64,000 bases of DNA from Dehalococcoidia bacterium (lineage in GTDB: Bacteria > Chloroflexota > Dehalococcoidia > Lucifugimonadales > UBA2962): NCBI GenBank assembly GCA_034421295.1, contig DAOUKM010000019.1, forward strand, positions 257,611 through 321,610, given 5' to 3'. The position numbers were made by a program, and so were the translations under genes. Below, in pieces: positions 9,891 through 25,606 of this stretch (its first letter is position 1; the number at the start of each line of letters is the position of its first letter). The notes under the pieces are model-generated. The model had not been told where the DNA came from, did no database searches, and saw only the letters and a program-made list of their open reading frames with translations.

Positions 9891-10958
9891 CTAGGCGAAC
9901 GTCAGCGCCCTTCGTGGGTTGTCAACTAGAAGTTGATCGATCAGACCCTGGTCGAGACCCCGCCGGCGCAGTCGCGGGACTATGTTGTCGAGGATGTGGG
10001 CGATTCCCTTACCACCGTAGCGGGTGAGCTGGTGTTTGAAGTTGGCGTCGTGAGAGATGACGACCTGATCGGCGAAACCCCTCTCGATTAGGAACTCTAT
10101 CTTGTCCATCTCCTGCGCGTCGCTGGCCGCGAACTCATTGTATTTTCCCATGTAGCGGATGCTCGAATCCTCGTAGGCGCCGAGGTGATCAAACTCCAGA
10201 AAGCACCCGGCCTGCCCAAGCTCTGTCATGGCGCCCATGTCCCAGATGGCCATGCCCAGATGGGCGAATATGATGTTTGTGGGGTCTGCGCCCGCGGCAA
10301 TGAGAACGTCCAGAATGCCGTGAGGAGACCAGTCGTTAAGTCCCGGGTGGATCATGATGGGCGCGCCGGTCTCAATCTGGGCGCATGCCGAGGCTCGCAG
10401 CACCTTGCGCTCGTTCTCGGTAAGCGGGTGGAAGTTTCCGACCTCGCCGATCAACCCGCTCTTGATGCCTGTGTCGTCGACGCCGAGCGTGATGTCGCGC
10501 ACGATCTTGTCGGAGAGTAGCTCCTCGGAGCGCTGGTCCATGTCCGCAGGGTGGGCGACGGGCACGTAGTAGCTGCCCCCCATGACGATGTTAAGCCCCG
10601 TGGCCCTGGAGATCCTGGCCAAGCCCCGGGGGTCCCGCCCTATGCCCAGGCTGGTGGCGTCGACCACCGAGACGCCCCCGGAGTACCGGTACTGGAGAGC
10701 CTCTTCGATGGCGACCTCAATGTCCCAGAGCCTGCCCGTGTCCTTGTTGTGCGACCAGTTGGCCATGATGCCCCCCAGCCGTTCGATAGAGACCGGTGCG
10801 TCTATCCAGACCCTCCGGCTCGCCTCCTCGGGCGGCTCGAAGTAGCATTCCAGGTCGACGAGCAGGTGCTCGTGCATGATCGTGAGACCGAGTTGTTCGG
10901 GTGGGATCGTTCCCAGAACGGTCTGTACCCATCCCGACTGCGGGCTGTTTGGCGCCAT
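9891..10958 (-). CDS. Phosphotriesterase-homology protein (Php/PTER family), paralog 2
   Basis: Track ORF 9891..11036 (GTG). ATG at 10958 gives an N-terminus (MAPNSPQSGWVQTVLG..) collinear with paralog 1. Motifs LGLTIMHEHLL, GLIGEVGN, IMIHPG, IIFAHLG, VISHDAN. Confidence 0.85.
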   Translation of the reverse strand: MAPNSPQSGWVQTVLGTIPPEQLGLTIMHEHLLVDLECYFEPPEEASRRVWIDAPVSIERLGGIMANWSHNKDTGRLWDIEVAIEEALQYRYSGGVSVVDATSLGIGRDPRGLARISRATGLNIVMGGSYYVPVAHPADMDQRSEELLSDKIVRDITLGVDDTGIKSGLIGEVGNFHPLTENERKVLRASACAQIETGAPIMIHPGLNDWSPHGILDVLIAAGADPTNIIFAHLGMAIWDMGAMTELGQAGCFLEFDHLGAYEDSSIRYMGKYNEFAASDAQEMDKIEFLIERGFADQVVISHDANFKHQLTRYGGKGIAHILDNIVPRLRRRGLDQGLIDQLLVDNPRRALTFA

Positions 10959-11086
10959 AACTGTCACGGTGCCTGCTGAGTTTGCATCAGAGTCTATAGA
11001 AATCGAGGGCGACCAACACTGTCGGCGCGCGAACACGAGGGGCGGGTAAGGTACTATGCGATCGGTCGACTGCCCAGGAGGATCAG

Positions 11087-12034
11087 ATGGACTACGATGC
11101 GATTCGCCAAGAGCTAAGAGGGCCGGCGGTGCTGGTGATGACGCCGTTCGACTCTGCCTATCAACTCAACCTGGACGCCCTGCGCATGAATATCCGCCAC
11201 ATCGTCCAGGGTGGAGTCTCAAGGGGCAAGGGATTCGTAATCTGCCCATCCGGGACGGGCGAGTACAACACCTTGTCCGGAGACGAACACAGGGCCGTCG
11301 TGGAGGCGGCCGTGGAGTCCGCGCAGGGGGACATAGAGATCGTCGCCGGAGTCGCGTCCAGTTCGCACTTCGAAGTCATAGAGCGCTGCAATCAGGCCCT
11401 CGATGCAGGCGCAAAGGTGGCTATGGTACCGCCTCAGTACTACTACCATGGCATGGACCGGGACGCACTTGTTCGCTGGTACGCAGAGATAGCCAGCCAG
11501 ACGCAGATCGGCCTTATGGTGTACGACCAGTCCTGGCGACGTCTGGGCGATAGCGTGGATTGCCGGACGACGGCCCGGTTGGTTGACATCCCCAGCGTGG
11601 TCTCAGTGAAGCGGGGATTCGAGCCCTCCTTCCAGGACTATGTGGAAACGATGGACCGCTTTGCCGAGAGGTTGGCTATCGTGGACAACTCGTATGGACA
11701 TACCGCGGGTATGGCTCATCAGCACGGCGCCTCCTCCTACATAACGGGCATCGCCGCCTTCTGGCCCCAGGGGGAAGCGAAGTACTGGTCGCTGCTTGAG
11801 GCCGGCAGGTACGCTGAAGCCGACAGGCTCCACTCTCGGCAATCCACCTTCTGGCACTTTGTCGACGACGATTTCGCCGGCTATGCCACCAACGTGCTGA
11901 AGGCTGCGGCCAGGTACGTAGGCATTGAAGCCGGATCCGTGCGACCTCCGTTCCGCGACCTCAGTGATGAGGAGCGGGCCAGGCTGGCCGATATTCTCCG
12001 TGAACTGGGGGTGCCTGAAGCGCACACAGTCTGA
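11087..12034 (+). CDS. Dihydrodipicolinate synthase / N-acetylneuraminate lyase family (class I aldolase) protein, paralog 1
   Basis: 315 aa; RBS AGGAGGA upstream; family pattern ..GTGE...LS..E...V......G...VVAGV....; VSVKRG supplies the Schiff-base Lys position. Confidence 0.75.
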   Translation: MDYDAIRQELRGPAVLVMTPFDSAYQLNLDALRMNIRHIVQGGVSRGKGFVICPSGTGEYNTLSGDEHRAVVEAAVESAQGDIEIVAGVASSSHFEVIERCNQALDAGAKVAMVPPQYYYHGMDRDALVRWYAEIASQTQIGLMVYDQSWRRLGDSVDCRTTARLVDIPSVVSVKRGFEPSFQDYVETMDRFAERLAIVDNSYGHTAGMAHQHGASSYITGIAAFWPQGEAKYWSLLEAGRYAEADRLHSRQSTFWHFVDDDFAGYATNVLKAAARYVGIEAGSVRPPFRDLSDEERARLADILRELGVPEAHTV

Positions 12035-12040
12035 GGGTCG

Positions 12041-12817
12041 ATGCGAATGCGTGTCGCCCGCGGCGTCCACATGATCCCGGGCATAAGGTGGTCCCGTGTC
12101 TGGCTGATTGAAGGGGAAGACGAACTGGCCCTGGTGGACGCTGGCCATCCCTGGACTTCATCTGCGGTGGCGGGTTATCTGCGGTCGATTGGCCGCGGCT
12201 TGCAGGAAGTGTCCCTGATCCTGATAACTCACGCTCATCCCGACCATTTCGGCGGTGCCGCCAGGCTGCGGATGACGACTGGGGCTCGCATCGTCGCCCA
12301 TCCGGCGGACTGTCGCCGATTGTCGGACGGGACGTGGAGCCTTAGCTACCTGGGGGCGGGGAGCGTAGCCGCTCCGGTACCGTTCTTTCGCAGGACGCCG
12401 GTCGATCTGTTGGTGGGGGATGGCGACGTCCTTCCGTTTTCCCGAGCCGTTCGTGTATTCCACACGCCAGGACATTCGCCGGGCAGCCTGTGTTACCTGC
12501 TGGAGCGAGACGGGGTCCTGTTCACCGGAGATACACTCTTCAGCGACGGTCGCAGGGTGGCCAGGTCGGCGCCCTTTCCCAAGTCGGACCGCAGCCTCTA
12601 CAGGCACTCGGTTGCAAGGATGTCGGACCTCGAGTTCGATGTTCTGTGCGGTGGCCATGGCCGGGCTCTGGAGGGAAGTGGCTCAGCTGCGGTCCGCGAG
12701 CTGGTCAGGCGTCGCCCGGAGCCTCCTGGCTGGGGACAGGTGCTGGCGCGCCTAGCCGGGCGCACACGGGGTCTTTCCAGATGTAATCGCCGTCGTGACC
12801 CGCCGCCCGGGCCCTAG
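12041..12817 (+). CDS. MBL-fold metallo-hydrolase
   Basis: ITHAHPDHFGG (HxHxDH) motif, later HTPGHSPG and GGHG; Arg/Pro-rich C-terminal tail. Confidence 0.8.
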   Translation: MRMRVARGVHMIPGIRWSRVWLIEGEDELALVDAGHPWTSSAVAGYLRSIGRGLQEVSLILITHAHPDHFGGAARLRMTTGARIVAHPADCRRLSDGTWSLSYLGAGSVAAPVPFFRRTPVDLLVGDGDVLPFSRAVRVFHTPGHSPGSLCYLLERDGVLFTGDTLFSDGRRVARSAPFPKSDRSLYRHSVARMSDLEFDVLCGGHGRALEGSGSAAVRELVRRRPEPPGWGQVLARLAGRTRGLSRCNRRRDPPPGP

Positions 12818-12851
12818 GTGCTGAGTCCCCGACCCTGGACCTGGCACGTCA

Positions 12852-14084
12852 CTAGACCAGGAGCAGTCCGTTTTCCTTGATCACGCGGCCCTGGCTGATT
12901 ATGGTGTCCACCTTGTGCAGCGTACGGATGTCTGACAGCGGATCGCCTGCGATCATCAGCGCATCCGCCGATTTTCCCGGCTCGAGAGTTCCGGTCTCGT
13001 CGTCTATATCCAGGCACTCGGCGGATGTGCGGGTGGCCGAGACTATTGCGTCCATCTCGGAGATGCCCATCCCCTCGACCATTACCTGCGGCGTGTAGGC
13101 AAAGTCGCCGAACTCAACGAAGGCCATGCCTGTGTCCAGTCCTGTGACGAACTTGACCCCCCGGTCCCACATGTCGCGGAGGATGGCATAGCGACCCTCG
13201 GGGTCGTCAAGAACCGCCGAGGTGGAGCCCGGATCGGGAGGCACACCCTTGAGAGCCCTGATGTCAGCAATTGCGATGGTTGGGTCGACCCACAGGCCCT
13301 TTTCGGCCATGCTGTCGGCCACCTTGGGTCGGTAGTCCCAGTTGTCCCCCTCGTCTGCCGGTAGCCAGGTGCTGTGAATCAGGTTGTGCACGCCGGCCTC
13401 AGTGCAGTTGACCACGCCTACCGTGCCATGGCAGTGGGCTGCGACCCTCACCCCCATTCGATCGGCGTCGGCAACAGCCGCCTTGAGGGTGGAGGCGGGA
13501 TACTGGGCTGCTCGCACGTTGGACCGCGGGGTGAACGCGCCGCCGGTCGACATGATCTTGATGTAGTCGGCCCCCAGCTTTATCTGCCGCCGGACGGCTG
13601 TAACGACCTCGTCGACGGTGTCGGCTTCGGTGCCGAAGCTGTTGCAGTGACCACCGGTAGTCGTGATCGGCGTGCCCGTTACGAGCATGCGAGGTCCCGG
13701 GATCTTGCCGTCCGCAACCGCCCTCTTGACCGGGAAGGCGATCTCGTTGCGGCTGCCCAGGTCGCGAACCGTGGTTACACCGGACGCCAGGGTCGCTCGA
13801 ACCGCGTTGACCGAACGCATCAGCAGTTCGTCGTGGCTCTCCCTTGTGACGTGTTCGTAGGCATCGGGGCTGGCCGAACAGTGCATGTGGGAGTGCACTT
13901 CAATGAAACCCGGCATGATGGTGCCGCCGGCCAGTTCCATGACTTCTCCGTTCGGGCTGCCGCCGAGCTGGTCCCGTGTTGTGACCGCAAGTATGCGGCC
14001 GTCCTCAATGATCAGGGCGCCGTTGGGGACGGGAGCCGCCCCTGTACCGTCGATCAGTCGGTCGGCGATGAGAATTCGTCGCAT
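12852..14084 (-). CDS. Amidohydrolase-family metal-dependent hydrolase
   Basis: 410 aa; GFIEVHSHMH (HxH), KIMSTGG, AAHCHG and a C-terminal LEPGKSADALMI..DPL pattern typical of the amidohydro_1/imidazolonepropionase-like group. Confidence 0.8.
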   Translation of the reverse strand: MRRILIADRLIDGTGAAPVPNGALIIEDGRILAVTTRDQLGGSPNGEVMELAGGTIMPGFIEVHSHMHCSASPDAYEHVTRESHDELLMRSVNAVRATLASGVTTVRDLGSRNEIAFPVKRAVADGKIPGPRMLVTGTPITTTGGHCNSFGTEADTVDEVVTAVRRQIKLGADYIKIMSTGGAFTPRSNVRAAQYPASTLKAAVADADRMGVRVAAHCHGTVGVVNCTEAGVHNLIHSTWLPADEGDNWDYRPKVADSMAEKGLWVDPTIAIADIRALKGVPPDPGSTSAVLDDPEGRYAILRDMWDRGVKFVTGLDTGMAFVEFGDFAYTPQVMVEGMGISEMDAIVSATRTSAECLDIDDETGTLEPGKSADALMIAGDPLSDIRTLHKVDTIISQGRVIKENGLLLV

Positions 14085-14218: not shown

Positions 14219-15202
14219 ATGGCCACCGCGAAAGCATCCGTACCCAAGGAAAAATTGCTGTGGATGTACGAAACCATGGTCCTGATCCGGCGCTTCGAGG
14301 AGCAGGCGAAACGTGAGGCCGACCAGGGCCGGATACTGGGGACGCACTCGGCTATAGGTGAGGAGGCGGTGCCGACCGGCATCTGCGCGCACCTGCGAGA
14401 TGATGACTACGTGCTCGGTAACCATCGCAGCCACCATCACTGCATCGCCAAGGGGGTCGGCGTCAAGGAGATGATGGCCGAACTGCTCGGTAAGGTGACC
14501 GGCACAAATCGGGGTAAGGGCGGCACGATGCACATCGCCGATGCGACCAAGGGAATGCTCGGCGCCAACGGCGTGGTTGGATCGAATATACCTGTTGCCA
14601 CGGGCTGCGCACTCGCCGCCAAGGTCCAGGGGCGTGACAGCGTGTCCGTCGTGTTCTTTGGTGACGGGGCATCAAGCCAGGGATCACTGCACGAGGCGAT
14701 GAACCTGGCGTCGATCTGGGATTTGCCGGTGATATTCATTTGCGAGAACAATCGCTACGCGGAGTCGACGCCTTACGAATACGCGGTCGCCGGAAAGTCC
14801 GTGGCCAGTCGTGCCGCCGGGTACGCGATGCCCGGGGTGACGGTGGATGGTCAGAACGTGATGGAGATGTACGAGGTGGCTGGCGAAGCGGTTGCCCGCG
14901 CACGTCGCGGAGAGGGCCCGACGCTCATCGAGGCGTTAACCTACCGCTATCACGGCCACTACGGTGCCGACAATCCGCTGGGCTATCGCACAGAGGATGA
15001 GGAGGAGTACTACAAGGACCGGGACTGCATAGACACCATGTCCAAGTTCCTGCTGGAGAGTGGCATCATGACCCAACAGGAATTGGACGAGGTTGACCGC
15101 GTGGCTACAGGGCAGGTCGAGGAGGCGTCCAAGTTTGCCATCGAGAGCCCTTACCCGGACCCGTCCGAGATCCTCAGCGACGTGTACGTAAACTACCCCT
15201 AG
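14219..15202 (+). CDS. 2-oxoacid (pyruvate/acetoin/branched-chain type) dehydrogenase E1 component, alpha subunit (TPP-dependent)
   Basis: 327 aa; FFGDGASSQGSLHEAMNLASIWDLPVIFICENNRYA (TPP-binding GDG...NN motif), YRYHGH. Confidence 0.9.
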   Translation: MATAKASVPKEKLLWMYETMVLIRRFEEQAKREADQGRILGTHSAIGEEAVPTGICAHLRDDDYVLGNHRSHHHCIAKGVGVKEMMAELLGKVTGTNRGKGGTMHIADATKGMLGANGVVGSNIPVATGCALAAKVQGRDSVSVVFFGDGASSQGSLHEAMNLASIWDLPVIFICENNRYAESTPYEYAVAGKSVASRAAGYAMPGVTVDGQNVMEMYEVAGEAVARARRGEGPTLIEALTYRYHGHYGADNPLGYRTEDEEEYYKDRDCIDTMSKFLLESGIMTQQELDEVDRVATGQVEEASKFAIESPYPDPSEILSDVYVNYP

Positions 15203-15326
15203 TTGTGCATGCACCCTTCCGCCGGGCTCTCTGGGAACGTCGCGGCATAGGGACCACTGCGGGTGAAGGCCACGGGTGACCATCCAGCGACGGCAGGATT
15301 GAACAGTCTGCGAGGAGAATCTACAT

Positions 15327-16355
15327 ATGGCGACGACAGCGGTTAGGGCACTCACATATGCGCAGGCGGTCAACGAGGGCTTCCATCAGGAGTTCGAGCG
15401 AGATCCGGCTGTCATCATCATGGGCGAGGACGTGGCCGGTGGGGCGGGCCGGGACGATTTCGAGGACGCGTGGGGAGGGGTCTTTAAGCTGACGCGGGGG
15501 CTGATCGGCAAGTACGGCCCCGAGCGGGTCCGAGACACCCCGATAGCGGAGAATGGCTTCATCGGTGCCGCCGTGGGTGCTTCGGCCGCCGGTCTCAGGC
15601 CGATCGCCGATCTGATGTTCGTGGGCTTTGTGGGTGTTTGCGGCGATCAGATCTTCAACAACATGGCGAAGATGCATTACATGTTCGGCGGAAAGGTGAA
15701 TCTGCCGCTCACCGTTATCACCTCCACGGGGGCCGGCGTCGGCTCGGCGGCCCAGCACTCCGAAACCCTGTACTCGATCTTTGTACACTTCCCGGGACTC
15801 AAGTGCGTTGCCCCCTCAAATCCGTACAACGCCAAGGGGCTGCATATAGCCGCCATCCGAGATGATGACCCCGTGATCGTCTTTAACAACAAGCTGCTCA
15901 TGGGGGGCGTGGGCACCGGCGCACATGTGCCTGAGGAGGCGTATGAGGTTCCCATCGGAAAGGCCCACATAGCCAGGGAGGGCGGTGACGTCACCCTGAT
16001 CGGCATCAGCTACACGACGTATCAATGCCTTAAGGCGGCCGATATTCTGGCCGATCGCGGGTATTCGGCCGAGGTCATAGATCTACTATCCCTGTCGCCG
16101 CTCGACGAAGACACCGTCCTGAGTTCTGTACAGAAGACTCGCAAGGTGGTGATCGTGGACGAGGACTACCCGCGCTGCTCGATGGCCTCGGAACTGTCTG
16201 CGGTGATAGCCGAGCAGGCCTTTGACTTTCTCGACGCACCCCCGAGGAGGGTGATGGCTCCTCACACGTCCGTTCCATACAGCCCCGTCCTGGAAGACCA
16301 GTTCATTCCCTCGCCGGAGCGAATCGCCGAAGAGGCGATCGCGTCCATGGAGTAG
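15327..16355 (+). CDS. 2-oxoacid dehydrogenase E1 component, beta subunit, copy 1
   Basis: 342 aa; GEDVA...RVRDTPIAENGFIGAAVGA, AAQHSE, FPGLKCVAPSNPY.AKGL, C-terminal transketolase-C domain. Confidence 0.9.
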   Translation: MATTAVRALTYAQAVNEGFHQEFERDPAVIIMGEDVAGGAGRDDFEDAWGGVFKLTRGLIGKYGPERVRDTPIAENGFIGAAVGASAAGLRPIADLMFVGFVGVCGDQIFNNMAKMHYMFGGKVNLPLTVITSTGAGVGSAAQHSETLYSIFVHFPGLKCVAPSNPYNAKGLHIAAIRDDDPVIVFNNKLLMGGVGTGAHVPEEAYEVPIGKAHIAREGGDVTLIGISYTTYQCLKAADILADRGYSAEVIDLLSLSPLDEDTVLSSVQKTRKVVIVDEDYPRCSMASELSAVIAEQAFDFLDAPPRRVMAPHTSVPYSPVLEDQFIPSPERIAEEAIASME

Positions 16356-16358
16356 CCC

Positions 16359-17387
16359 TTGGCCGATCAACGGCCGCTCACCTTCGTCCAGGCGACGAAC
16401 GAGGCGATTCGCACGATGATGCGTGAGGATCCCAATGTGATCGTGATGGGAGTGGATGTGGCCGGCGCGGCGGGCCGCGCCGATCAGGGATTCATCGACC
16501 ATTTTGGCGGCACTTTCCAGCTCACCAAGGGACTGATACAGGAGTTCGGTCCGGAGCGCGTTCGGGACACCCCCATTTCCGAGACCGGCTTCATGGGTGC
16601 GGGAGTCGGCGCGGCCGCGGCCGGGCTGAGGCCGTTGGTGGACATGATGTTCGTTGGCTTTGTGGGAGTCTGCGGGGACCAGATACTCAACAACATGGCC
16701 AAGATGCACTACATGTTCGGAGGCAAGGTCAAGCTGCCGATCACGGTCATGGCCCAGACCGGCGCCGGCCACGGCTATGCGGCGCAGCATTCAGAGACGC
16801 TCTGGTCCGTGTTCACACACTTTCCGGGCCTTAAGTGCGTCGTGCCGTCCGATCCCTACACGGCCAAGGGGCTTCAGATAGCGGCGATGCGCGACGACGA
16901 TCCGGTGATAATCTTCCAGTGTATCCGCTCCCTTGGAGCCAACTACGGCGGCCAGCACGTCCCGGAGGAGGCCTACGAGGTTCCGATCGGCCAGGCGAGG
17001 GTGGTTCGCGCCGGCACAGATGTGACTCTGATCGGCATCGGCTATGGCACACGCACGTGCTTGGAAGCCGCCGAGAAGCTGGCGGAGAGAGGGTACTCGG
17101 CGGAAGTCGTCGATCTTCTGTCCCTCTCTCCCCTGGACGAGCATACGATCATCGAGTCAATAAAGAAGACTCGCAAGGTGGTCATCACCGATGAAGATTA
17201 TCCGCGCTGCTCGATCGCGTCCGATCTCGCTGCGCTCGCGGTCGAGCAAGCATTCGATTTCCTCGATGCACCGCCAAAGAGGCTGAGCGCGCCCCACGCG
17301 TCCGTTGGCTACAGCCCGCCGCTGGAGGAGCGCCACCCCCCTAGGCCTGTCGACGTGGTTGAGGCCGCGGTCGCGGTCTTGGAATGA
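16359..17387 (+). CDS. 2-oxoacid dehydrogenase E1 component, beta subunit, copy 2 (tandem paralog)
   Basis: 342 aa, TTG start 3 nt after the stop of copy 1; collinear with copy 1 and roughly two-thirds identical by eye; retains AAQHSE and other conserved blocks. Confidence 0.85.
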   Translation: MADQRPLTFVQATNEAIRTMMREDPNVIVMGVDVAGAAGRADQGFIDHFGGTFQLTKGLIQEFGPERVRDTPISETGFMGAGVGAAAAGLRPLVDMMFVGFVGVCGDQILNNMAKMHYMFGGKVKLPITVMAQTGAGHGYAAQHSETLWSVFTHFPGLKCVVPSDPYTAKGLQIAAMRDDDPVIIFQCIRSLGANYGGQHVPEEAYEVPIGQARVVRAGTDVTLIGIGYGTRTCLEAAEKLAERGYSAEVVDLLSLSPLDEHTIIESIKKTRKVVITDEDYPRCSIASDLAALAVEQAFDFLDAPPKRLSAPHASVGYSPPLEERHPPRPVDVVEAAVAVLE

Positions 17388-17424
17388 GCGGCCGAACACC
17401 TACACTGGCGACTGGGAGGACCTA

Positions 17425-18624
17425 ATGGCAACCGAGATCATAATGCCCAAGCTCGGGATGGTAATGACCGAGGGCACGGTCTCGAAGTGGACTAAGGGAG
17501 CGGGCGAAAAGGTCTCTCAGGGCGAGGTGATCGCCGAGATTGAGACCGAGAAGATCAACTACGAGCTTGAGGCGACCGGCGACGGATTGCTGCACCAGTC
17601 GGTCCTGGAGGGGGCCGTGGTGGCGGTAAACGGCCTGATGGGCTATCTGCTCGGCGAAGGCGAGAATCCTCCCGAAGACCGCAAGGAAACGGGAGCGGTC
17701 GCGGCCGATCCCGTATCGGCGTCGGCCCCCAGACGTACCGGGCCAGCCAGGAGTGTCGGGGGCTCGGTACCATCGACTCCGGGCGCCCGCAAGCTCGCCG
17801 CAAAGCTCGGGGTCGATCTGACCAAGATCACTCCCACCGGACCGCGGGGTCGGGTGGTGGAGGCAGACGTTCGAAAATTCGCCGACGCCGGCGCTTCGTC
17901 GAGTGAGCCGGCCGGCCGGCCACCCGCCGTTTCACTGGGAGGGTTGCCGGAACCGGCCAAAGTCGACCAGATGTCGGGCATGCGCAAGGGCATAGCCGAC
18001 CACATGCGCGCTTCGATCCAGTCTACGGCCCAGCTCACGTTCACGCTGGAGGTGCCTGTAACCGAGCTACAGCGCCAGCGCAAGAGTTGGTCGCGGCTAA
18101 ACAGGACCCCGGTCACCAACACCCACATTTATGCAAAGGCCTGTGCACAGGTCCTTGGGGATCTGCCGATCCTCAACACGGTTCTGGCGGACGGCAAGAT
18201 CCACTATTTTGACCGCATTGACATCGGTGTTGCCGTTGCGCTCAGCGAGGGACTGATAGTGCCGGTGTTGCGGGACGTTGCAAACACTCCACTGGCAGAC
18301 ATCGCCAGGCAGACCTCTGACCTGACCAAGAGGGCGCAATCAGGGCAGCTCTCACCGGACGAGGTTGCCGGAGGCACCTTCACTATCAGTGTGCTGGGTA
18401 CGGTGGACACATTCACTCCAATCCTCAACCGTGGCCAGTCTGCCATCCTTGGCGTCGGCGCGACGAGGCGAAAGCCAGTCGTGGAGGGAGGCGAGATTGC
18501 CATCGGGGACGTATGTACTTTCAGCCTGACCGTCGACCATCAAACTGTAGATGGTGCGGTGGCAGCTGATTTCATGGCAAGGTTCTCGGAATTGATCCAG
18601 GATCCGACTCCTCTGCTGTCTTGA
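17425..18624 (+). CDS. Dihydrolipoamide acyltransferase (E2 component) with one lipoyl domain
   Basis: Track ORF 17305..18624 overlaps the E1-beta end. ATG 17425 is preceded by GGGAGGA (17414-17420) and opens MATEIIMPKLGMVMTEG. Lipoyl-Lys context IETEKINYE; E3/E1-binding domain PGARKLAAKLGVDL; catalytic DHQTVDG. Confidence 0.9.
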   Translation: MATEIIMPKLGMVMTEGTVSKWTKGAGEKVSQGEVIAEIETEKINYELEATGDGLLHQSVLEGAVVAVNGLMGYLLGEGENPPEDRKETGAVAADPVSASAPRRTGPARSVGGSVPSTPGARKLAAKLGVDLTKITPTGPRGRVVEADVRKFADAGASSSEPAGRPPAVSLGGLPEPAKVDQMSGMRKGIADHMRASIQSTAQLTFTLEVPVTELQRQRKSWSRLNRTPVTNTHIYAKACAQVLGDLPILNTVLADGKIHYFDRIDIGVAVALSEGLIVPVLRDVANTPLADIARQTSDLTKRAQSGQLSPDEVAGGTFTISVLGTVDTFTPILNRGQSAILGVGATRRKPVVEGGEIAIGDVCTFSLTVDHQTVDGAVAADFMARFSELIQDPTPLLS

Positions 18625-18768: not shown

Positions 18769-19707
18769 ATGCAGTACATCAGTCTCGGGCGAACCGGCCT
18801 TAAGGTCTCGCCTCTGTGCCTAGGCACCAACATGTTTGGCGCCGGCTACGTCGACGATGAGAGGGCCGCTACCGTCATCAGGGCTGCCCTTGATATGGGT
18901 GTGAACTTCGTAGACACCGCCGATGTCTACCATGACGGCCTTTCAGAGAAGGTGGTCGGCAGGGCGATCACCCACATCCGTCACCGGGTGGTCTTGGCGA
19001 CGAAGGGCGGATACCCGATGGGAGACGGACCAAACGATAAAGGCCTGTCCCGCTCCCACCTCACCGAGGCAATTGACGCCAGCCTGCGGCGTCTTGGTAC
19101 GGACTACATCGATCTATACCAGGTCCATCTGTGGGACCCTGACACCCCGCTTGATGAGACTATGAGAGCACTGGACGATGCCGTCGCCGCAGGCAAGGTT
19201 CGCTACGTGGGGTGCTCCAACTTTTCGAGCTGGCAGTTGATCAGGGCACTCTGGGAGAGCGACGCGGGCGGCCGCATCCGGTTTGAGACGACGCAGCCGC
19301 CCTATAATCTCGCCCACCGGGATATAGAGACGGAGCTGGTGCCTGCCTGCTTGCAGGAGGACGTGGCGATCCTGCCGTACCAGGTGCTGGCCGGCGGAGT
19401 TCTGACAGGGACGTATGATCCGGAGTTGCCGCCGCCTCAGGACACCCACATGGCCTCCAAGCTGGCTGGGACGGCCCGTTTGCGCTACTGGAATCAGGCC
19501 ACCTTTGAGGTTGCAGACAGGCTGATGGAGGTGGCCGCCGACCTGGGGCACAGCGCAACCCAGGTGGCTATGGCCTGGGCGCTCGCCAAGCCCGGGATCA
19601 CCTCTTTGGTGGTGGGATCGAGTCGCCCCGAGCAGGTGCAGGCTAATATTGAGGCGCTCGACATCAGACTGGATGATGCCTTGATTGCCAGGTTGGAGGG
19701 GCGATAG
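18769..19707 (+). CDS. Aldo/keto reductase
   Basis: 312 aa; LGTNMFG, FVDTADVY, LATKGG, IDLYQVH, SNF motif series of the AKR superfamily. Confidence 0.85.
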   Translation: MQYISLGRTGLKVSPLCLGTNMFGAGYVDDERAATVIRAALDMGVNFVDTADVYHDGLSEKVVGRAITHIRHRVVLATKGGYPMGDGPNDKGLSRSHLTEAIDASLRRLGTDYIDLYQVHLWDPDTPLDETMRALDDAVAAGKVRYVGCSNFSSWQLIRALWESDAGGRIRFETTQPPYNLAHRDIETELVPACLQEDVAILPYQVLAGGVLTGTYDPELPPPQDTHMASKLAGTARLRYWNQATFEVADRLMEVAADLGHSATQVAMAWALAKPGITSLVVGSSRPEQVQANIEALDIRLDDALIARLEGR

Positions 19708-19750
19708 CCCGGGGCGACCGAGGCGCCGTATCGATGATGCGAGGGGCGTG

Positions 19751-20041
19751 GTGACGGTAGTGGTCACGGTGGAGCGCCGGATGAGGCCGGGCTCACTGAG
19801 GGAGATTCACAGGCTGCAGGCTGAGCTATGGGAGATCGCCAGCCGGACGCCGGGCTATATCTCTGGGGAAACCGTCTTCAGCGCCTCGGATCCGGACCGG
19901 TTCATGACCCTGAGCAGATGGGAGAGCATTGACCACTGGTGGGACTGGGAAAATAACGGCGAGCGCCACGACCTTTTCGAGAAATACAGCGGTATCTTAG
20001 AGGTCACCAGGGGTCCAAGAGTCTGGAGGACCACGCAGTGA
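19751..20041 (+). CDS. ABM (antibiotic-biosynthesis-monooxygenase-like) ferredoxin-fold protein
   Basis: Track ORF 19685..20041 overlaps the AKR end. GTG 19751 follows GAGGGG. Pattern beta-strand start VTVVVTVERR.. then F.TLSRWES.DHW..W typical of ABM domains. Confidence 0.6.
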   Translation: MTVVVTVERRMRPGSLREIHRLQAELWEIASRTPGYISGETVFSASDPDRFMTLSRWESIDHWWDWENNGERHDLFEKYSGILEVTRGPRVWRTTQ

Positions 20042-20051
20042 GAGGGAGGTA

Positions 20052-21359
20052 ATGGCTGATTCTCTGAGCATCACCGACAACAGGACAGGCGAAGTCTATG
20101 AAGTGCCTATCTTCGCCGGCACCTTCCCGGACAGGGGATCGGCGATAAATGCCTCGGAACTGCGCCGGATCAGGTCATCGGAGGCGGACTTTGGCCTGCT
20201 ATCCCATGACCCGGGCTTCCTAAACACCTCTTCTTGCCGGAGTCAGATCACCTTTATCGACGGAGACGCCGGGGTCCTGCGCTACCGCGGCTACTCCATC
20301 GAGCAGTTGGCGGCAAACAGCACCTATCTGGAGGTCGCCTACTTACTGATCAATGGAGAACTGCCCACGGAGTCCCAACTCGCGGCGTGGACCTATGACA
20401 TAACCCACCACACGATAATTAACGAGAAGATCAAGCGATTTCTGGACGGCTTCCACTACAACGCACATCCGATGGGTATTCTTGTCAGTGCCGTTGCCGC
20501 GCTCTCTACCTTCTATCCCAAGTCTCGGGACGTGCACGACCAGAGCGTACGCAGCCGTTCGATCATGCGATTGATCGCCAAGATGCCCACCCTGGCGGCA
20601 TTCGCATACAGATACAACGCCGGACAGCCCTACGCCTATCCAGACAACGATCTGAGTTACTCGGGGAACTTCCTGAACATGATGTTCAAGTCCACCGAGC
20701 TCAAGTATCGACCGGACCCGGTGCTGGAGCGGGCACTTGACGTCCTATTCGTTCTGCATGCCGACCACGAGCAGAATTGCAGCACGTCGGCGATGAGAAA
20801 CGTGGGCAGCTCCGACGCCGACCCCTACGTGTCCGTCTCGGCGGCCGTGGCCGCACTCTACGGGCCTCTTCACGGAGGTGCGAACGAGGCCGTCTTGCGC
20901 ATGCTCACGGAGATCGGCGACGTCAGGAACGTGCCTGAGTACGTACGACGGGTCAAGAGCCGCGAATTTCGGCTGATGGGCTTTGGCCATCGCGTCTACA
21001 AGAGCTATGACCCCCGGGCGAAGATCCTCCGCGAACTGGCCGAGCAGGTATTTGAGGTATGCGGCCGCAACCCGCTTATCGAGGTGGCCACCGAGCTGGA
21101 GAAGATCGCCCTTCAGGATGAGTTCTTCGTAGAACGCGGCCTGTATCCGAATGTGGACTTTTACTCGGGGATCATCTACCAGGCCATGGGTTTTCCCATT
21201 TCCCTGTTCCCCGTGCTGTTCGCGATCCCGAGGACGTCGGGGTGGCTGGCACATTGGGAGGAGATGCGCAGCGATCCGGAGCTGCGCATAGCACGACCAC
21301 GCCAAGTCTACGCTGGCGAGGCCGGGCGCTCTTATGTGCCACTGGCCGAACGGGCATGA
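20052..21359 (+). CDS. gltA: Citrate synthase
   Basis: 435 aa; LHADHEQNCSTS, GPLHGGANE, MGFGHRVYK..DPR catalytic signature blocks. Confidence 0.9.
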   Translation: MADSLSITDNRTGEVYEVPIFAGTFPDRGSAINASELRRIRSSEADFGLLSHDPGFLNTSSCRSQITFIDGDAGVLRYRGYSIEQLAANSTYLEVAYLLINGELPTESQLAAWTYDITHHTIINEKIKRFLDGFHYNAHPMGILVSAVAALSTFYPKSRDVHDQSVRSRSIMRLIAKMPTLAAFAYRYNAGQPYAYPDNDLSYSGNFLNMMFKSTELKYRPDPVLERALDVLFVLHADHEQNCSTSAMRNVGSSDADPYVSVSAAVAALYGPLHGGANEAVLRMLTEIGDVRNVPEYVRRVKSREFRLMGFGHRVYKSYDPRAKILRELAEQVFEVCGRNPLIEVATELEKIALQDEFFVERGLYPNVDFYSGIIYQAMGFPISLFPVLFAIPRTSGWLAHWEEMRSDPELRIARPRQVYAGEAGRSYVPLAERA

Positions 21360-21413
21360 CCGGATTCCGCCAAGGCAATCCTGGACGGCACGCTACATGT
21401 TGTTAAAGGGGGA

Positions 21414-21463
21414 CGCCACCCCACTGCATATCGTGCAGTCGGCCGTGGCGGTGGTGATTTTCT
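21414..21463 (+). terminator. Rho-independent terminator candidate after citrate synthase
   Basis: Nested stem CGCCAC (21414-21419)/GTGGCG (21445-21450) enclosing ACTGCA-tatcg-TGCAGT, followed by GATTTTCT. Confidence 0.5.
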
Positions 21464-21477
21464 AGAGGGTTTCAGGC

Positions 21478-21491
21478 CATAATACCGTGTG
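21478..21491 (+). promoter_or_regulatory. -10 box CATAAT placed 5 nt before the GTG start (leaderless transcript candidate)
   Basis: CATAAT 21478-21483, GTG 21489, no Shine-Dalgarno in between. Confidence 0.35.
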
Positions 21492-22457
21492 GCCTCCAAA
21501 CCCACTCCGGTTGAAAACCCTCAGCACGGGGAGATTCGCTTTGCTCACCCGAGCGAGCAGGAATTTGCCTCGATACTGGACTTTTACGGCGTTAGATGGG
21601 AGTACGAGCCGAAATCGTTCCCCCTCAGGTGGGACGCCGAGAGGGTGGCAGAGATGTTCACCCCGGACTTCTACCTCCCTGACCTCGGCCTGTACCTGGA
21701 GCTGACCACCCTCAAGCAGAGCCTGGTCACCGAGAAGAATCGCAAGCTCAGGCGCATGCGGAAGCTGTACCCGGATGTGGCGGTCAAGCTCCTTTATCGG
21801 CGCGATTATCACCGGCTATTGGCCAAGTATGGGTTTGGCCCTCTTGCCACCGCGGATTTCGGCGGCGTGGACCGCGTGTTGTTCTCCGCCCGGGGCATAG
21901 CCGATAAGGTGCGCCAGCTGGGGCGAGAGATATCGGTCGATTACGAGGGTAAGGAGCCGGTGCTTGTGGGTGTCCAGCGAGGCATGGTGTGCTTCATGGC
22001 CGATTTGATAAGGCAAATCACCCTGCCGATAGAGCTGGACTTCATGTCGGTTTCATACTACGGATCGTCGGAGGAAGGCGTGAGGGTGGTAAAGGATCTG
22101 GACCTTGGACTTACCGGGCGGGACGTACTGTTGATCGAAGACATAGTCGACACCGGTATGACGCTGAATTACCTGCTCAATTACCTGAGGGTCAAAGAGC
22201 CGGCCACCTTAAGTGTGTGTACGCTCGTGGACAAGCGAATCAGGCGCATCGTCGATGTCGACATCCGCTACGTCGGATTCGAGGTAGGGGATGAATTTCT
22301 CGTCGGCTACGGTTTGGACCACATGGAAAAGTACCGCAACCTGCCATTCTTGGGGGTCCTGAGGCCCGGACAGGGGGATTCCGAAGACAAAAAAAGAGGC
22401 CCCAAGGAACCTTGCTCTCCGCTCACCTCGCCGGACGCCCCGCAGTTGCCCACTTGA
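21489..22457 (+). CDS. hpt: Hypoxanthine phosphoribosyltransferase with ~125-aa N-terminal extra domain and Pro/Ser-rich C-terminal tail
   Basis: C-terminal two-thirds: EPVLVGVQRGMVCFMADL, LLIEDIVDTGMTL (PRPP motif), FLVGYGLD..EKYRNLP = HPRT. Residues 1-~125 unrelated to HPRT. Confidence 0.8.
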   Translation: MASKPTPVENPQHGEIRFAHPSEQEFASILDFYGVRWEYEPKSFPLRWDAERVAEMFTPDFYLPDLGLYLELTTLKQSLVTEKNRKLRRMRKLYPDVAVKLLYRRDYHRLLAKYGFGPLATADFGGVDRVLFSARGIADKVRQLGREISVDYEGKEPVLVGVQRGMVCFMADLIRQITLPIELDFMSVSYYGSSEEGVRVVKDLDLGLTGRDVLLIEDIVDTGMTLNYLLNYLRVKEPATLSVCTLVDKRIRRIVDVDIRYVGFEVGDEFLVGYGLDHMEKYRNLPFLGVLRPGQGDSEDKKRGPKEPCSPLTSPDAPQLPT

Positions 22458-22549
22458 CCCCGGTCCGGTAGCTTCCTTCGCAGCCCCTTGGGACCAAGGA
22501 CAATCTATCAGTCGGTCGGTATTATGTCAAGTACAATCCGCGGCGAGAC

Positions 22550-22858
22550 ATGCGAAATCCGGGCCCGCGGTTGATATCTTGGCTGGGCGTGGAGATGGAC
22601 AGCCGGGCGGCGGCCTTGAGCACTGCAAAGGATGTGAGAGGCCAATTTCAACTGTTATCGTCCGGGTATTCCGACTACCGCCAGGACGCGAAGGAACCGG
22701 CCCTACGGGGCGAAATCACAAGGCGATTGCCCTTCAGACGCCTAGACACTTTTGGGCGACTGTGTGAAATTGAACCGGTCGCCAAGGTGACCACAGCCGT
22801 ATCGTCGGATAATGCTGCCCTTCTAGCCTTGCCGAGAGGTCCGGAAGGGGCCATTTAG
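22550..22858 (+). CDS. Hypothetical protein (weak call; could instead be a 5' leader RNA)
   Basis: 102-aa ORF filling an otherwise empty 409-bp gap and ending 8 nt before the next start. Third-codon-position GC looks similar to neighbouring genes by eye. TACAAT at 22532-22537. No recognisable motif. Confidence 0.3.
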   Translation: MRNPGPRLISWLGVEMDSRAAALSTAKDVRGQFQLLSSGYSDYRQDAKEPALRGEITRRLPFRRLDTFGRLCEIEPVAKVTTAVSSDNAALLALPRGPEGAI

Positions 22859-22866
22859 GAGGAGAT

Positions 22867-23418
22867 ATGGAAGCTGCGTTCTTAGTTTTGATCGGGGGTG
22901 CACTCTTTGCACAGTCCTGGAACCACCTAGGCCTGTTTTCCGAAGGGCGCTCGATGGGAGTGGTAGTGGCTGGGCTTGGCCTGCTGTCATTGGTTGGCCT
23001 TGTGATGACGCCGATGCTCCTGGAGGGAAGGTCCACCGAGGCAGATGTCCTGACGAACATCACGATGATGAAGGCGCTGATCCTGGTCTGGGCGGTATAC
23101 GCGGTGGCCGTGGCGGCTCAGGCCTACCTGGATCTGGAGGAACGTGCGGTCGGCTTTTATGCGGGCTTCCTGTGCGTATTCAACGTTTTCGCGCTGATCT
23201 ACTTCGCGGCTGAGATGTCAAGTGGCTACGGCGACGGTCCATGGCTCACGATGTCAGCGGCCACACTGATTCTGGCGATCAACGCGGGTCTGGTTTTCTT
23301 CCACCAGGCCATCCCCTTCCAGGCGATCAGGCTTGTGACCGGGTGGTTCCTGCTGATCGGCGGCGCAGCCGTGGCCGTGCTGGGCGCGCTGGTCGCGACG
23401 TCGGTGATACAGATCTAG
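22867..23418 (+). CDS. Six-TM small membrane protein, possibly AmiS/UreI-type amide/urea channel
   Basis: 183 aa; RBS AGGAGG 5 nt upstream; size, TM layout and several segments resemble UreI/AmiS proteins recalled from memory; not verified. Confidence 0.5.
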   Translation: MEAAFLVLIGGALFAQSWNHLGLFSEGRSMGVVVAGLGLLSLVGLVMTPMLLEGRSTEADVLTNITMMKALILVWAVYAVAVAAQAYLDLEERAVGFYAGFLCVFNVFALIYFAAEMSSGYGDGPWLTMSAATLILAINAGLVFFHQAIPFQAIRLVTGWFLLIGGAAVAVLGALVATSVIQI

Positions 23419-23438
23419 GACCCACGGAACTTGACTCC

Positions 23439-23479
23439 TGCGCCCCTGCGAGTTCCGCTCGACAGGGGCGCATTTGTCT
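23439..23479 (+). terminator. Rho-independent terminator
   Basis: TGCGCCCCTG (23439-23448) / CAGGGGCGCA (23463-23472), 14-nt loop, then TTTGTCT. Confidence 0.6.
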
Positions 23480-23524
23480 GGAATCGACGGATCGCGAAGG
23501 GACGGAGGGTGACGAACCGCAGTT

Positions 23525-25606
23525 ATGGTTGATTCCCTTACAGAGGAGACGACAGGCACGGCGGACCCTCGAATCGTAGGTTCAGATGAATCTGGGGCTG
23601 GGCACCCGACCAGCCGGAGCCAAAGAATCTCCGTTGCGCAGATCCTGGCTGAAAGCGAACGGGAAACGGACAGGTACTCTTGGGAGGGGACCTTCGCTCA
23701 GTACCTGGAGAAGGTAATCGCGACGCCGGCGCTGTCGCGACTGTCCCATGGTCTCGTCTATGACGCCATAGGTTCTGCAGGAGCTGAAGAGGACCTCAAC
23801 GGAGAGCCTGTCTACGGGCTATTTGACGGGCAGATCTTTGGTCTGGAGTCGGCCCTGGATCGAATCGTTGGCTATTTCGAGGCTTCGGCCCGGCGCCTGG
23901 AGGTCAGGAAACGAATTCTGCTCCTGCTGGGCCCGCCGGCCAGTGGAAAATCGTCGATTATAGACATCATCAAGCGTGGTCTTGAGGATTACACCAAGAC
24001 TCAGGATGGGGCGGTCTACACCATCCAGGGTTGTCCAATGCAGGAGGACCCCCTGCACTTGATCCCAAGCGGGCTAAGGGCCAGGCTAGCCGGGGATCAC
24101 GGCCTGTACATTGAGGGCGACCTTTGCTTCCATTGCCGATTCCTCCTGGAGCGCGATTACAGGGGCAATCCCGCGGAGGTGCCCGTGACCCGGATCGTGT
24201 TCTCCGAGTCCCAGGCCAGGGGTATCGGCTACTACGTTGCCAACAATCCAAGGCCGCCCGACCCGTCCGTTCTGGTGGGCAGCTACAACGAGAAGAAGCT
24301 CGACGGAGAACGCCAGGAGGTCGCCGCCCGCGCCTTCCGGCTGGACGGTGAACTGAACGTTGCCAACCGGGGCATCATGGACTTTGTCGAGATCTTCAAG
24401 GCTGACCGCAGGTTGCTGACCACGCTGCTGTCGCTGGCGCAAGAGCAACTCATCAAGATGGAAAAGTTCGGATCCGTCTACGGAGACGAGGTGATCATAG
24501 GGCACTCCAACGAGGGCGATTTCAATACGTTCAGTCAGGACGAGTCCTCAGAGGCGCTGAAAGACCGGATCATAGCCATCAAGATCCCCTACAACCTGCG
24601 GGTTTCAGAAGAGGTCAAAATCCTCAACAAGATGCTCGGACAGAGCACCGTGCAGGATGTGGACATCGCACCGCTGACCATGCAGGTGGTCAGCACTTTC
24701 GCCATCCTGTCTCGGCTTGAGGCTCCCTCGCGACAGGGTATGAGCCTGTTGGACAAGGTCAAGCTCTATAACGGCGAGCTCGTCGGTTCATACACCCATC
24801 GTGACGTAGTTGAAATGCAGCGCCACCACCCCAATGAGGGCATGGGGGGCATATCCCCCCGCTATGTGATGAACCGCATAGGGGTGGTGGCCAGCGCAGA
24901 ATCCGGAGTCGTGACGCCCCTGGCGGCCATAGACAGCCTGTGGCGGGGGCTCAAAGAGAACATCAGCCTGGATCAGGCCGACATCGTCACTTACGTGGGC
25001 TTCATCGCCGACACCGTCAAGGAGTACGACCGGCTCGCCGTGAAGGAGCTGCAGATGGCGCTGACCGACTCGTTTGACGACAGCGCCAACGAACTCTTCG
25101 AGAACTACGTCACCAGCATAGCCGACTTCTGCCAGTCAAATGGTAAATCGGGAGTTAGAACCCGTTCGCCCAACGAGCGGGATATGCAGGAACTGGAGAG
25201 GGCCGTGGGTGTGATGGCGCGGGATAAGCGCGCCTTTCGACAGGAGCTTCACGATCGAATCAGCGGGTGGAAGCTGAAGGGCAAATCGTTTGATTACCGC
25301 TCGGAGCCACGCTTGCGGACGGCTGTGGAGCTGAGGTTGCTACCCGCGCCCCGGGCCGTGGAGCGAGCGTTGACCGAACCTCGCTTCGCCCGCCAGAAGG
25401 TGGAGTGGCGCAGACGCTATGAAGCCGTGATCAGTCACCTTGTAGACTCCTTCGGCTACTCCCACGCCACGGCCGAGGATCTGATCGCCTACGGGATGCA
25501 TGTAATCAAGAGGCGCCCCGTGATCAAGACGCCCCGCAACGAGGGAGTCGAATGGCTCTGGCCCCTTTACCCTGATTCACCCGTTGGGGGTAGCGGTTCC
25601 GCCTAG
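23525..25606 (+). CDS. prkA: PrkA-family AAA+ serine protein kinase
   Basis: 693 aa; Walker A LLLGPPASGKSS; long collinear PrkA pattern (GIMDFVEIFK, IIGHSNE, ALKDRI..IKIPYNL). Confidence 0.9.
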   Translation: MVDSLTEETTGTADPRIVGSDESGAGHPTSRSQRISVAQILAESERETDRYSWEGTFAQYLEKVIATPALSRLSHGLVYDAIGSAGAEEDLNGEPVYGLFDGQIFGLESALDRIVGYFEASARRLEVRKRILLLLGPPASGKSSIIDIIKRGLEDYTKTQDGAVYTIQGCPMQEDPLHLIPSGLRARLAGDHGLYIEGDLCFHCRFLLERDYRGNPAEVPVTRIVFSESQARGIGYYVANNPRPPDPSVLVGSYNEKKLDGERQEVAARAFRLDGELNVANRGIMDFVEIFKADRRLLTTLLSLAQEQLIKMEKFGSVYGDEVIIGHSNEGDFNTFSQDESSEALKDRIIAIKIPYNLRVSEEVKILNKMLGQSTVQDVDIAPLTMQVVSTFAILSRLEAPSRQGMSLLDKVKLYNGELVGSYTHRDVVEMQRHHPNEGMGGISPRYVMNRIGVVASAESGVVTPLAAIDSLWRGLKENISLDQADIVTYVGFIADTVKEYDRLAVKELQMALTDSFDDSANELFENYVTSIADFCQSNGKSGVRTRSPNERDMQELERAVGVMARDKRAFRQELHDRISGWKLKGKSFDYRSEPRLRTAVELRLLPAPRAVERALTEPRFARQKVEWRRRYEAVISHLVDSFGYSHATAEDLIAYGMHVIKRRPVIKTPRNEGVEWLWPLYPDSPVGGSGSA

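Follow-up and report, generated by a model that had tools for sequence, protein, structure and literature searches.

What lies at the locus?

The window analysed here is a stretch of 64,000 nucleotides (64 kb) from a marine bacterium of the Dehalococcoidia/SAR202 group (contig DAOUKM010000019.1 of GenBank assembly GCA_034421295.1, positions 257,611 to 321,610 of the forward strand), and our subject is an operon within it that encodes a complex of the 2-oxoacid dehydrogenase superfamily with two genes, rather than one, for the beta subunit of its E1 component. The open reading frame (ORF) listing and the translations give four co-directional genes on the plus strand, in the order alpha-beta-beta'-E2. 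E1 alpha (14219..15202, 327 aa) is the subunit that binds the diphosphate of thiamine diphosphate, and its match to Pfam E1_dh (PF00676, 7.3e-92) covers profile positions 2-299 of 300. A spacer of 124 nt (15203..15326), which includes the ribosome-binding site of the next gene (GAGGAG, about 8 nt ahead of the ATG), leads to E1 beta (15327..16355), and this is followed by E1 beta' (16359..17387), which begins with a TTG. Each beta is 342 aa long and carries both Transket_pyr and Transketolase_C; beta matches solved E1 beta chains with E = 1e-70 to 1e-74, and the two copies are 68% identical to one another over 326 residues (E = 2e-160), with a single 2-residue indel. An earlier, sequence-only reading of this DNA had drawn attention to just this tandem of equal-length genes, roughly two-thirds identical, and in this it was right, as it was in placing the blocks RVRDTPIxExGF, AAQHSE and FPGLKCVxPSxPYxAKGL in both copies and the TTG of beta' 3 nt past the TAG stop of beta.

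The last gene, for the E2 dihydrolipoyl acyltransferase (17425..18624, 399 aa), matches Biotin_lipoyl (PF00364), E3_binding (PF02817, or PSBD, for peripheral subunit-binding domain) and 2-oxoacid_dh (PF00198), with a single lipoyl domain (K43 in ETEK), a single PSBD and a catalytic domain whose DHQTVDG conforms to DHxxxDG. As listed, its ORF runs from a TTG at 17305 and overlaps beta'; the true start is almost certainly the ATG at 17425 (MATEIIMPKLG...), which is preceded by GGGAGG 5 nt upstream. The E1_dh alpha, the two-domain betas with their catalytic Glu, His and Phe and the three-domain E2 are what one finds in members of this superfamily. No other alpha, beta or E2 homologue occurs elsewhere in the window, where the alpha of the operon is the only one.

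We also agree with the sequence-only reading that the window has no gene for E3, the lipoamide dehydrogenase, since the redox-disulfide motif C[LIVMA]xxGC[IVLTM]P is absent from every frame; none lies within 6 kb at the orthologous loci either. Operons for enzymes of this class often have no E3 gene, and its absence here is uninformative. Because the E2 retains its PSBD, it could recruit both E1 and an E3 supplied in trans. Among the relatives, the E2 of one closed long-read genome (L005 7069-8248) is interrupted in its Ala/Pro-rich linker by a frameshift, which reflects either an error of sequencing or a genuine disruption.

Is the second beta subunit real, and can it work?

Relatives of beta' were collected in a scan of one genome per species, from which the best 80 of 487 were kept, and these 80 are nearly all Dehalococcoidia/SAR202 metagenome-assembled genomes. 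A tblastn search with the four window proteins finds alpha-beta-beta'-E2 at loci L001-L006, L008, L010 and L013-L018, and in all the layout is carried by 15 other Dehalococcoidia/SAR202 genomes, of which several are closed chromosomes from long reads. The synteny for which the sequence-only reading suggested a search does exist, and the duplication is not unique to this assembly. The window's copies are 67-96% (beta') and 73-99% (beta) identical to their orthologues. At L029, the most basal tandem operon, an AIR-synthase-related (PurM-like) gene (4855-5952) is inserted between beta and beta', the order being otherwise kept. Since the layout recurs in independent assemblies, closed chromosomes included, and since the two copies are only 68% identical with a saturated synonymous divergence (dS 1.7), a collapsed or expanded repeat is ruled out. 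To us this conserved layout looks functional.

What, then, of the catalytic machinery? In the E1 of pyruvate dehydrogenase from Geobacillus stearothermophilus (E1p), the cofactor is activated by E59-beta, H128-beta is in contact with pyruvate and has a part in reductive acetylation, and F85-beta stacks on the pyrimidine ring, the histidine sitting in a nest formed by F82, F85, T124 and P125 of beta (PMC2663715). A gap-free alignment with kept motif spacing equates E59, H128, F85, F82 and T124 of that subunit with E75, H144, F101, F98 and position 140 of ours, and E75, H144, F98 and F101 are invariant in 16/16 beta and 17/17 beta' sequences from tandem operons. We therefore do not regard beta' as a pseudo-enzyme, and both beta and beta' are predicted to be catalytically equipped.

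The pattern of selection is in keeping with this. By the Nei-Gojobori method, comparing the window with close orthologues, the ratio of nonsynonymous to synonymous change (dN/dS) is 0.013-0.039 for beta, 0.037-0.10 for beta', 0.035-0.06 for alpha and 0.11-0.15 for E2, making beta the slowest-evolving gene of the operon and leaving beta', with a dN 1.1 to 2 times that of beta, under a constraint still about equal to that on alpha. The sequence-only reading had named disabling substitutions in orthologues of one copy as an outcome that would undo its interpretation, and none were seen: all 17 lineages have an unbroken beta' ORF, neither copy has a dN/dS above 0.10, and Glu, His and Phe of the catalytic site do not vary. 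On the same grounds the pseudogenisation of one copy is ruled out. The faster change of beta' and its frequently weak TTG start might still be taken as signs of redundancy or decay, of a scaffold without catalysis or simply of an error of assembly, but the intact ORFs, the low dN/dS in close pairs and the invariant residues speak against decay, as the independent closed assemblies and the 68% identity with dS 1.7 speak against artefact, and we consider this explanation largely refuted and highly improbable.

How old is the pair?

We built a neighbour-joining tree of 100 betas, and a bootstrapped version with three solved E1 betas as outgroups and 100 replicates. In the first, beta' forms its own clade, the internal branching of which mirrors that of the co-resident beta clade. 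The duplication is older than the common ancestor of all 16 lineages compared here (the window and 15 loci), and because the two clades are separate, mirror one another and are never joined in the bootstraps, the copies have been maintained independently for a long time, with no sign of gene conversion. The suggestion of the sequence-only reading that beta and beta' might be ancient paralogues is borne out.

Where exactly the duplication took place is another matter. Beta and beta' are monophyletic in 0/100 bootstraps, and beta' alone in 63/100, in a method that is sensitive to rate acceleration; set against the other operons, the two copies have only two shared-derived sites (M113 and L259), which lend some support to a duplication within the lineage, as compared with five private to each copy. 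Given this rate sensitivity and the shared M113 and L259, the tree does not fix the exact origin. The changes private to beta are M23F, G82A, V94A, G228S and V333I.

A second tandem pair of E1 betas, with an ATGA overlap between the genes, occurs in another Dehalococcoidia lineage (L068 4904-7035, L069 4904-7035 and L072 4907-7038). Its extra beta is monophyletic in 100/100 bootstraps and sister to the clade of its own first copy, and it too is under purifying selection (dN/dS 0.04-0.06), both copies being constrained. Tandem beta pairs have arisen twice, and independently, in Dehalococcoidia. The components of the operon are all of known kinds, and the novelty lies in a subunit composition that is conserved and has evolved twice.

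To which branch of the superfamily does the complex belong?

The sequence-only reading called this a 2-oxoacid dehydrogenase, which is right for the superfamily but too narrow for the E1, whose closest annotated relatives and shared insertion place it in the acetoin-dehydrogenase-type branch of AcoA and AcoB; with an E1 of that branch, the substrate need not be a 2-oxoacid. In a plasmid collection, the best annotated matches to beta are the betas of acoA-acoB-acoC clusters, at 52-54% identity over 96-97%. Moreover, an insertion of 10-12 residues after GEDVAG/GEDxAG is present in the window betas and in proteobacterial AcoB and absent from all solved betas of pyruvate dehydrogenase (PDH) and branched-chain 2-oxoacid dehydrogenase; it ends in DAWGG in beta (window 15435-15476, residues 37-50) and in DHFGG in beta' (16467-16514, residues 37-52). 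The two aco clusters that we inspected, on the Mycetohabitans megaplasmid NZ_CP062180.1 and the Skermanella plasmid pTT6-1 (NZ_CP067421.1), share with the window the order E1-alpha, E1-beta, lipoylated E2-type protein (AcoA/AcoB/AcoC, with or without AcoL), and their AcoB has the insertion with DAWGG, as does our beta, whereas beta' does not have that ending. They differ from the window in having a single beta, and in a third gene that carries the NCBI name AcoC, where the window has an E2 with a full classical 2-oxoacid_dh catalytic domain. Both clusters likewise have no E3 gene within 5 kb. In one of them a sigma-54 regulator and lipA are present. Neither of these, nor an acoX-like kinase, adjoins the window operon, which is flanked not by such aco-specific neighbours but by amidohydrolase, aldo-keto reductase, citrate synthase and PrkA genes.

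The match of the AcoC model NF011457 to the E2 is confined to residues 1-160, with 83.8 bits against a cutoff of 307, and every NCBIfam equivalog cutoff for PDH is missed: beta scores 309.7 and beta' 293 against 321, E2 248 against 445, and alpha, on PDH_E1_alph_y, 338 bits against 393.85. We class the E1 as AcoAB-like and the E2 as a classical acyltransferase rather than one of the AcoC type. The citrate synthase alongside is consistent with a role in producing acetyl-CoA, without proving it. Database labels are divided, with some orthologues called "acetoin:DCPIP oxidoreductase subunit beta" by JGI and "alpha-ketoacid dehydrogenase subunit beta" by NCBI, and because both copies receive this last name, automated annotation hides the duplication.

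What might two beta subunits be for?

The active site of an alpha2beta2 E1 is composed of the diphosphate-binding domain of alpha and the pyrimidine-binding domain of beta (PMC2663715). With one alpha and one beta to a site, two competent betas would mean two kinds of active site, and our favoured reading, in which we have about as much belief as doubt, is that two such kinds share a single alpha and a single E2, with a substrate range that has been widened or split between them, in other words a subfunctionalised specificity. Both betas would pair with the one alpha, giving alpha-beta and alpha-beta' sites, and both kinds would dock to the same E2 and deliver to its lipoyl arm, with E3 presumably supplied in trans from a gene elsewhere in the genome. 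The chemistry would be the same in each, the difference lying in the residues that pack about the catalytic His and in the loop specific to AcoB, and such a difference in specificity could operate in alpha2beta2 and alpha2beta'2 tetramers or in mixed ones alike.

It is here that the divergence of the copies becomes informative. Changes specific to beta' are A48H and W49F (plus E46I) in the insertion, S133Q, V138 to H, G or D, S140 to Y, N or S, I177M, and N187Q, after which 188-190 are rewritten; the window's own beta' shows DHFGG, Q133, H138, Y140 and Q187. Position 140 is Ser in 16/16 beta sequences and Y, N or S by sublineage in beta'. Since this is the position equivalent to T124-beta, we infer that beta and beta' diverge right around the catalytic His. 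Diversification is favoured by this clustering near the His and the AcoB loop, by a beta that is frozen while beta' varies by sublineage, by a second alpha that one sublineage has gained beside beta', and by the excess of betas over alphas elsewhere in these genomes, to which we return below.

Several considerations nevertheless weigh on the other side. The mapping of substitutions to the pocket comes from the gap-free alignment to solved E1 betas and not from a model of beta', and the AcoB-type loop is found in no solved E1 structure. Only about ten positions are cleanly clade-specific, so any shift in specificity may be small, and the NCBIfam PDH scores, falling as they do below their cutoffs, leave the substrate unassigned. 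Finally, strict adjacency and translational coupling suit an obligate 1:1 partnership of beta with beta' at least as well.

That partnership, which the sequence-only reading had named as one of two outcomes beside that of two substrate specificities, deserves a hearing in its own right. The complex might be an obligate asymmetric alpha2-beta-beta' heterotetramer, a single E1 species with one substrate, non-equivalent active sites and a non-equivalent face for E2 docking, in which the duplication serves assembly or the alternation of active sites and not specificity. At the junction between the genes (16349..16361), the order is GGAG, TAG, 3 nt, TTG; the GGAG (16349-16352) lies within the last codons of beta, 6 nt upstream of the TTG, and the translation of beta' would be coupled to that of beta and begin at a weak start. 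The TTG recurs in 10/17 beta' orthologues (the window and 16 loci), and GGAG or GGAA occurs near the 3' end of beta in most of the 17. In the tandem loci the two genes are always adjacent, with a gap of 3-89 nt or an overlap, and of near-equal length, all of which fits a fixed pair, as do the five derived, conserved substitutions in each copy, expected of complementary divergence, and the independent double origin of tandem pairs. There is structural precedent as well, in that each alpha2beta2 of G. stearothermophilus binds one PSBD, which sits on the two-fold axis of beta2 and makes an interface that is asymmetric by nature (PMC2663715). Yet the alpha' genes beside beta' and the beta'-derived orphans described below suggest that beta'-type subunits work outside a fixed pair, L029 tolerates an unrelated gene between its betas, and a conserved weak TTG start is not obviously a device for 1:1 output. 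On balance, we think the heterotetramer possible but doubtful. If it were true, it would be a case of genetically fixed asymmetry, which symmetric alpha2beta2 E1s, with their alternating sites and lone PSBD on the two-fold axis, reach only dynamically, and one that would have evolved twice in Dehalococcoidia.

Which alpha does beta' work with?

A third proposal gives beta' a partner alpha from elsewhere in the genome and has it sit in the operon only for the sake of the shared E2 and of regulation. Two of the tandem loci, L006 (7043-8026, minus strand) and L008 (2442-3422, minus strand), have a second, intact alpha', on the opposite strand between beta' and E2, which the related L007 does not have; it is about 76% identical to the alpha of the window, and its dN/dS is 0.11. 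A second alpha directly beside beta' is just what this proposal would like to see, but alpha' nests within the clade of the operon alpha, from which it was duplicated later, and because of this nesting the ancestral partner of beta' was most simply the operon alpha. That the window holds no second alpha counts against the proposal too.

It gains something from the genomes at large. Modules of beta and E2 with no alpha within 6 kb occur at L031 (5977-8217), where the genes run GlnA, GreA, beta, E2, ribonucleotide reductase, and also at L042, L051 and L074, and there are lone beta genes at L021, L025 and L032, which suggests that in these genomes the E1 alpha and E1 beta genes frequently lie apart; as such modules and lone betas are common among the relatives, trans pairing must occur in the group. 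Even so, a distant alpha as the partner of this particular beta' strikes us as quite unlikely.

A further set of betas, here termed orphan beta'', is found in closed genomes that also carry alpha-beta-beta'-E2 (L009 6001-7017, L011 6001-7011 and L012 6001-7023). These genes are 75-78% identical to beta', lie downstream of an MrfA-type helicase, have neither an alpha nor an E2 within 6 kb, and show a dN/dS of 0.03-0.10; they keep the catalytic Glu and His, with Val at the F98 position and Trp at 140. Like the beta-E2 modules and the lone betas, they are examples of how betas outnumber alphas elsewhere in these genomes.

How does the operon compare with known systems, and why does it matter?

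The E1p of G. stearothermophilus (PDB 1W85 and 3DUF) has the same subunit types and domains, and the window beta matches 1W85_B and 3DUF_B at about 2e-69; it has one beta gene, a symmetric beta2 core and no AcoB-type loop, where the window has two betas with the loop. Its operon includes E3. The top solved homologues of beta, both alignable end to end, are the Thermus thermophilus 2-oxoacid (branched-chain) dehydrogenase E1 (1UM9, 2.5e-73) and the Pyrobaculum aerophilum E1-beta (1IK6, 1.8e-74), the latter solved as beta alone; unlike the window, both systems have a single beta without the insertion. Duplicated subunits that are kept while other components are shared are familiar from eukaryotes, in the E3-binding protein, a paralogue of E2, and in the tissue-specific PDHA1 and PDHA2, but the E3-binding protein has lost catalysis, whereas beta' keeps its catalytic residues, and PDHA1 and PDHA2 are alphas that stand in for one another and are regulated separately, rather than co-transcribed tandem betas. 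A full-text search of the literature for tandem E1-beta or AcoB paralogues, or for a SAR202 dehydrogenase operon, found none, which is not proof of absence.

The alpha2beta2 E1s are textbook symmetric enzymes with one alpha and one beta gene, and here an abundant, uncultured ocean lineage keeps two betas. If these differ in specificity, the operon would represent a compact way of widening the substrate range of one lipoyl-dependent complex; SAR202 bacteria are viewed as degraders of diverse organic carbon, with which a wider range would fit, and the lineage is known for the expansion of paralogues. If, on the other hand, the two form a fixed beta-beta' core, they would provide a natural setting in which to examine how the active sites of thiamine enzymes communicate and how E2 docks on them asymmetrically.

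What surrounds the operon?

The spacer between alpha and beta had struck the sequence-only reading as unusually long. Its length of 124 nt is correct, and there is otherwise nothing remarkable about it: orthologous spacers span 24-124 nt, a search of Rfam with the 124 nt gave no match, no terminator-like site was seen in it, and it folds more weakly than shuffled controls (z = +1.8). The variable length, the poor folding and the two negative results speak against a regulatory RNA or attenuator at this position.

Upstream, the window carries phosphotriesterase-family, DHDPS-family, metallo-beta-lactamase-fold and amidohydrolase genes (9891-14084), and downstream (18769-25606) an aldo-keto reductase, citrate synthase, a phosphoribosyltransferase-domain protein, a 183-aa ORF without a Pfam match and the serine kinase PrkA. 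Relatives keep the divergent amidohydrolase on one side and the aldo-keto reductase, citrate synthase, 183-aa ORF and PrkA on the other, and the pair of 183-aa ORF and PrkA also lies downstream of single-beta operons in more distant Dehalococcoidia. With flanks that are conserved and held in common with single-beta operons, this is a core chromosomal locus and not a mobile island. Three loci labelled as Gammaproteobacteria or Ectothiorhodospiraceae (L033, L036 and L048) have alpha-beta-E2 operons with betas nested inside the Dehalococcoidia clade, which could reflect horizontal transfer or mis-binning.

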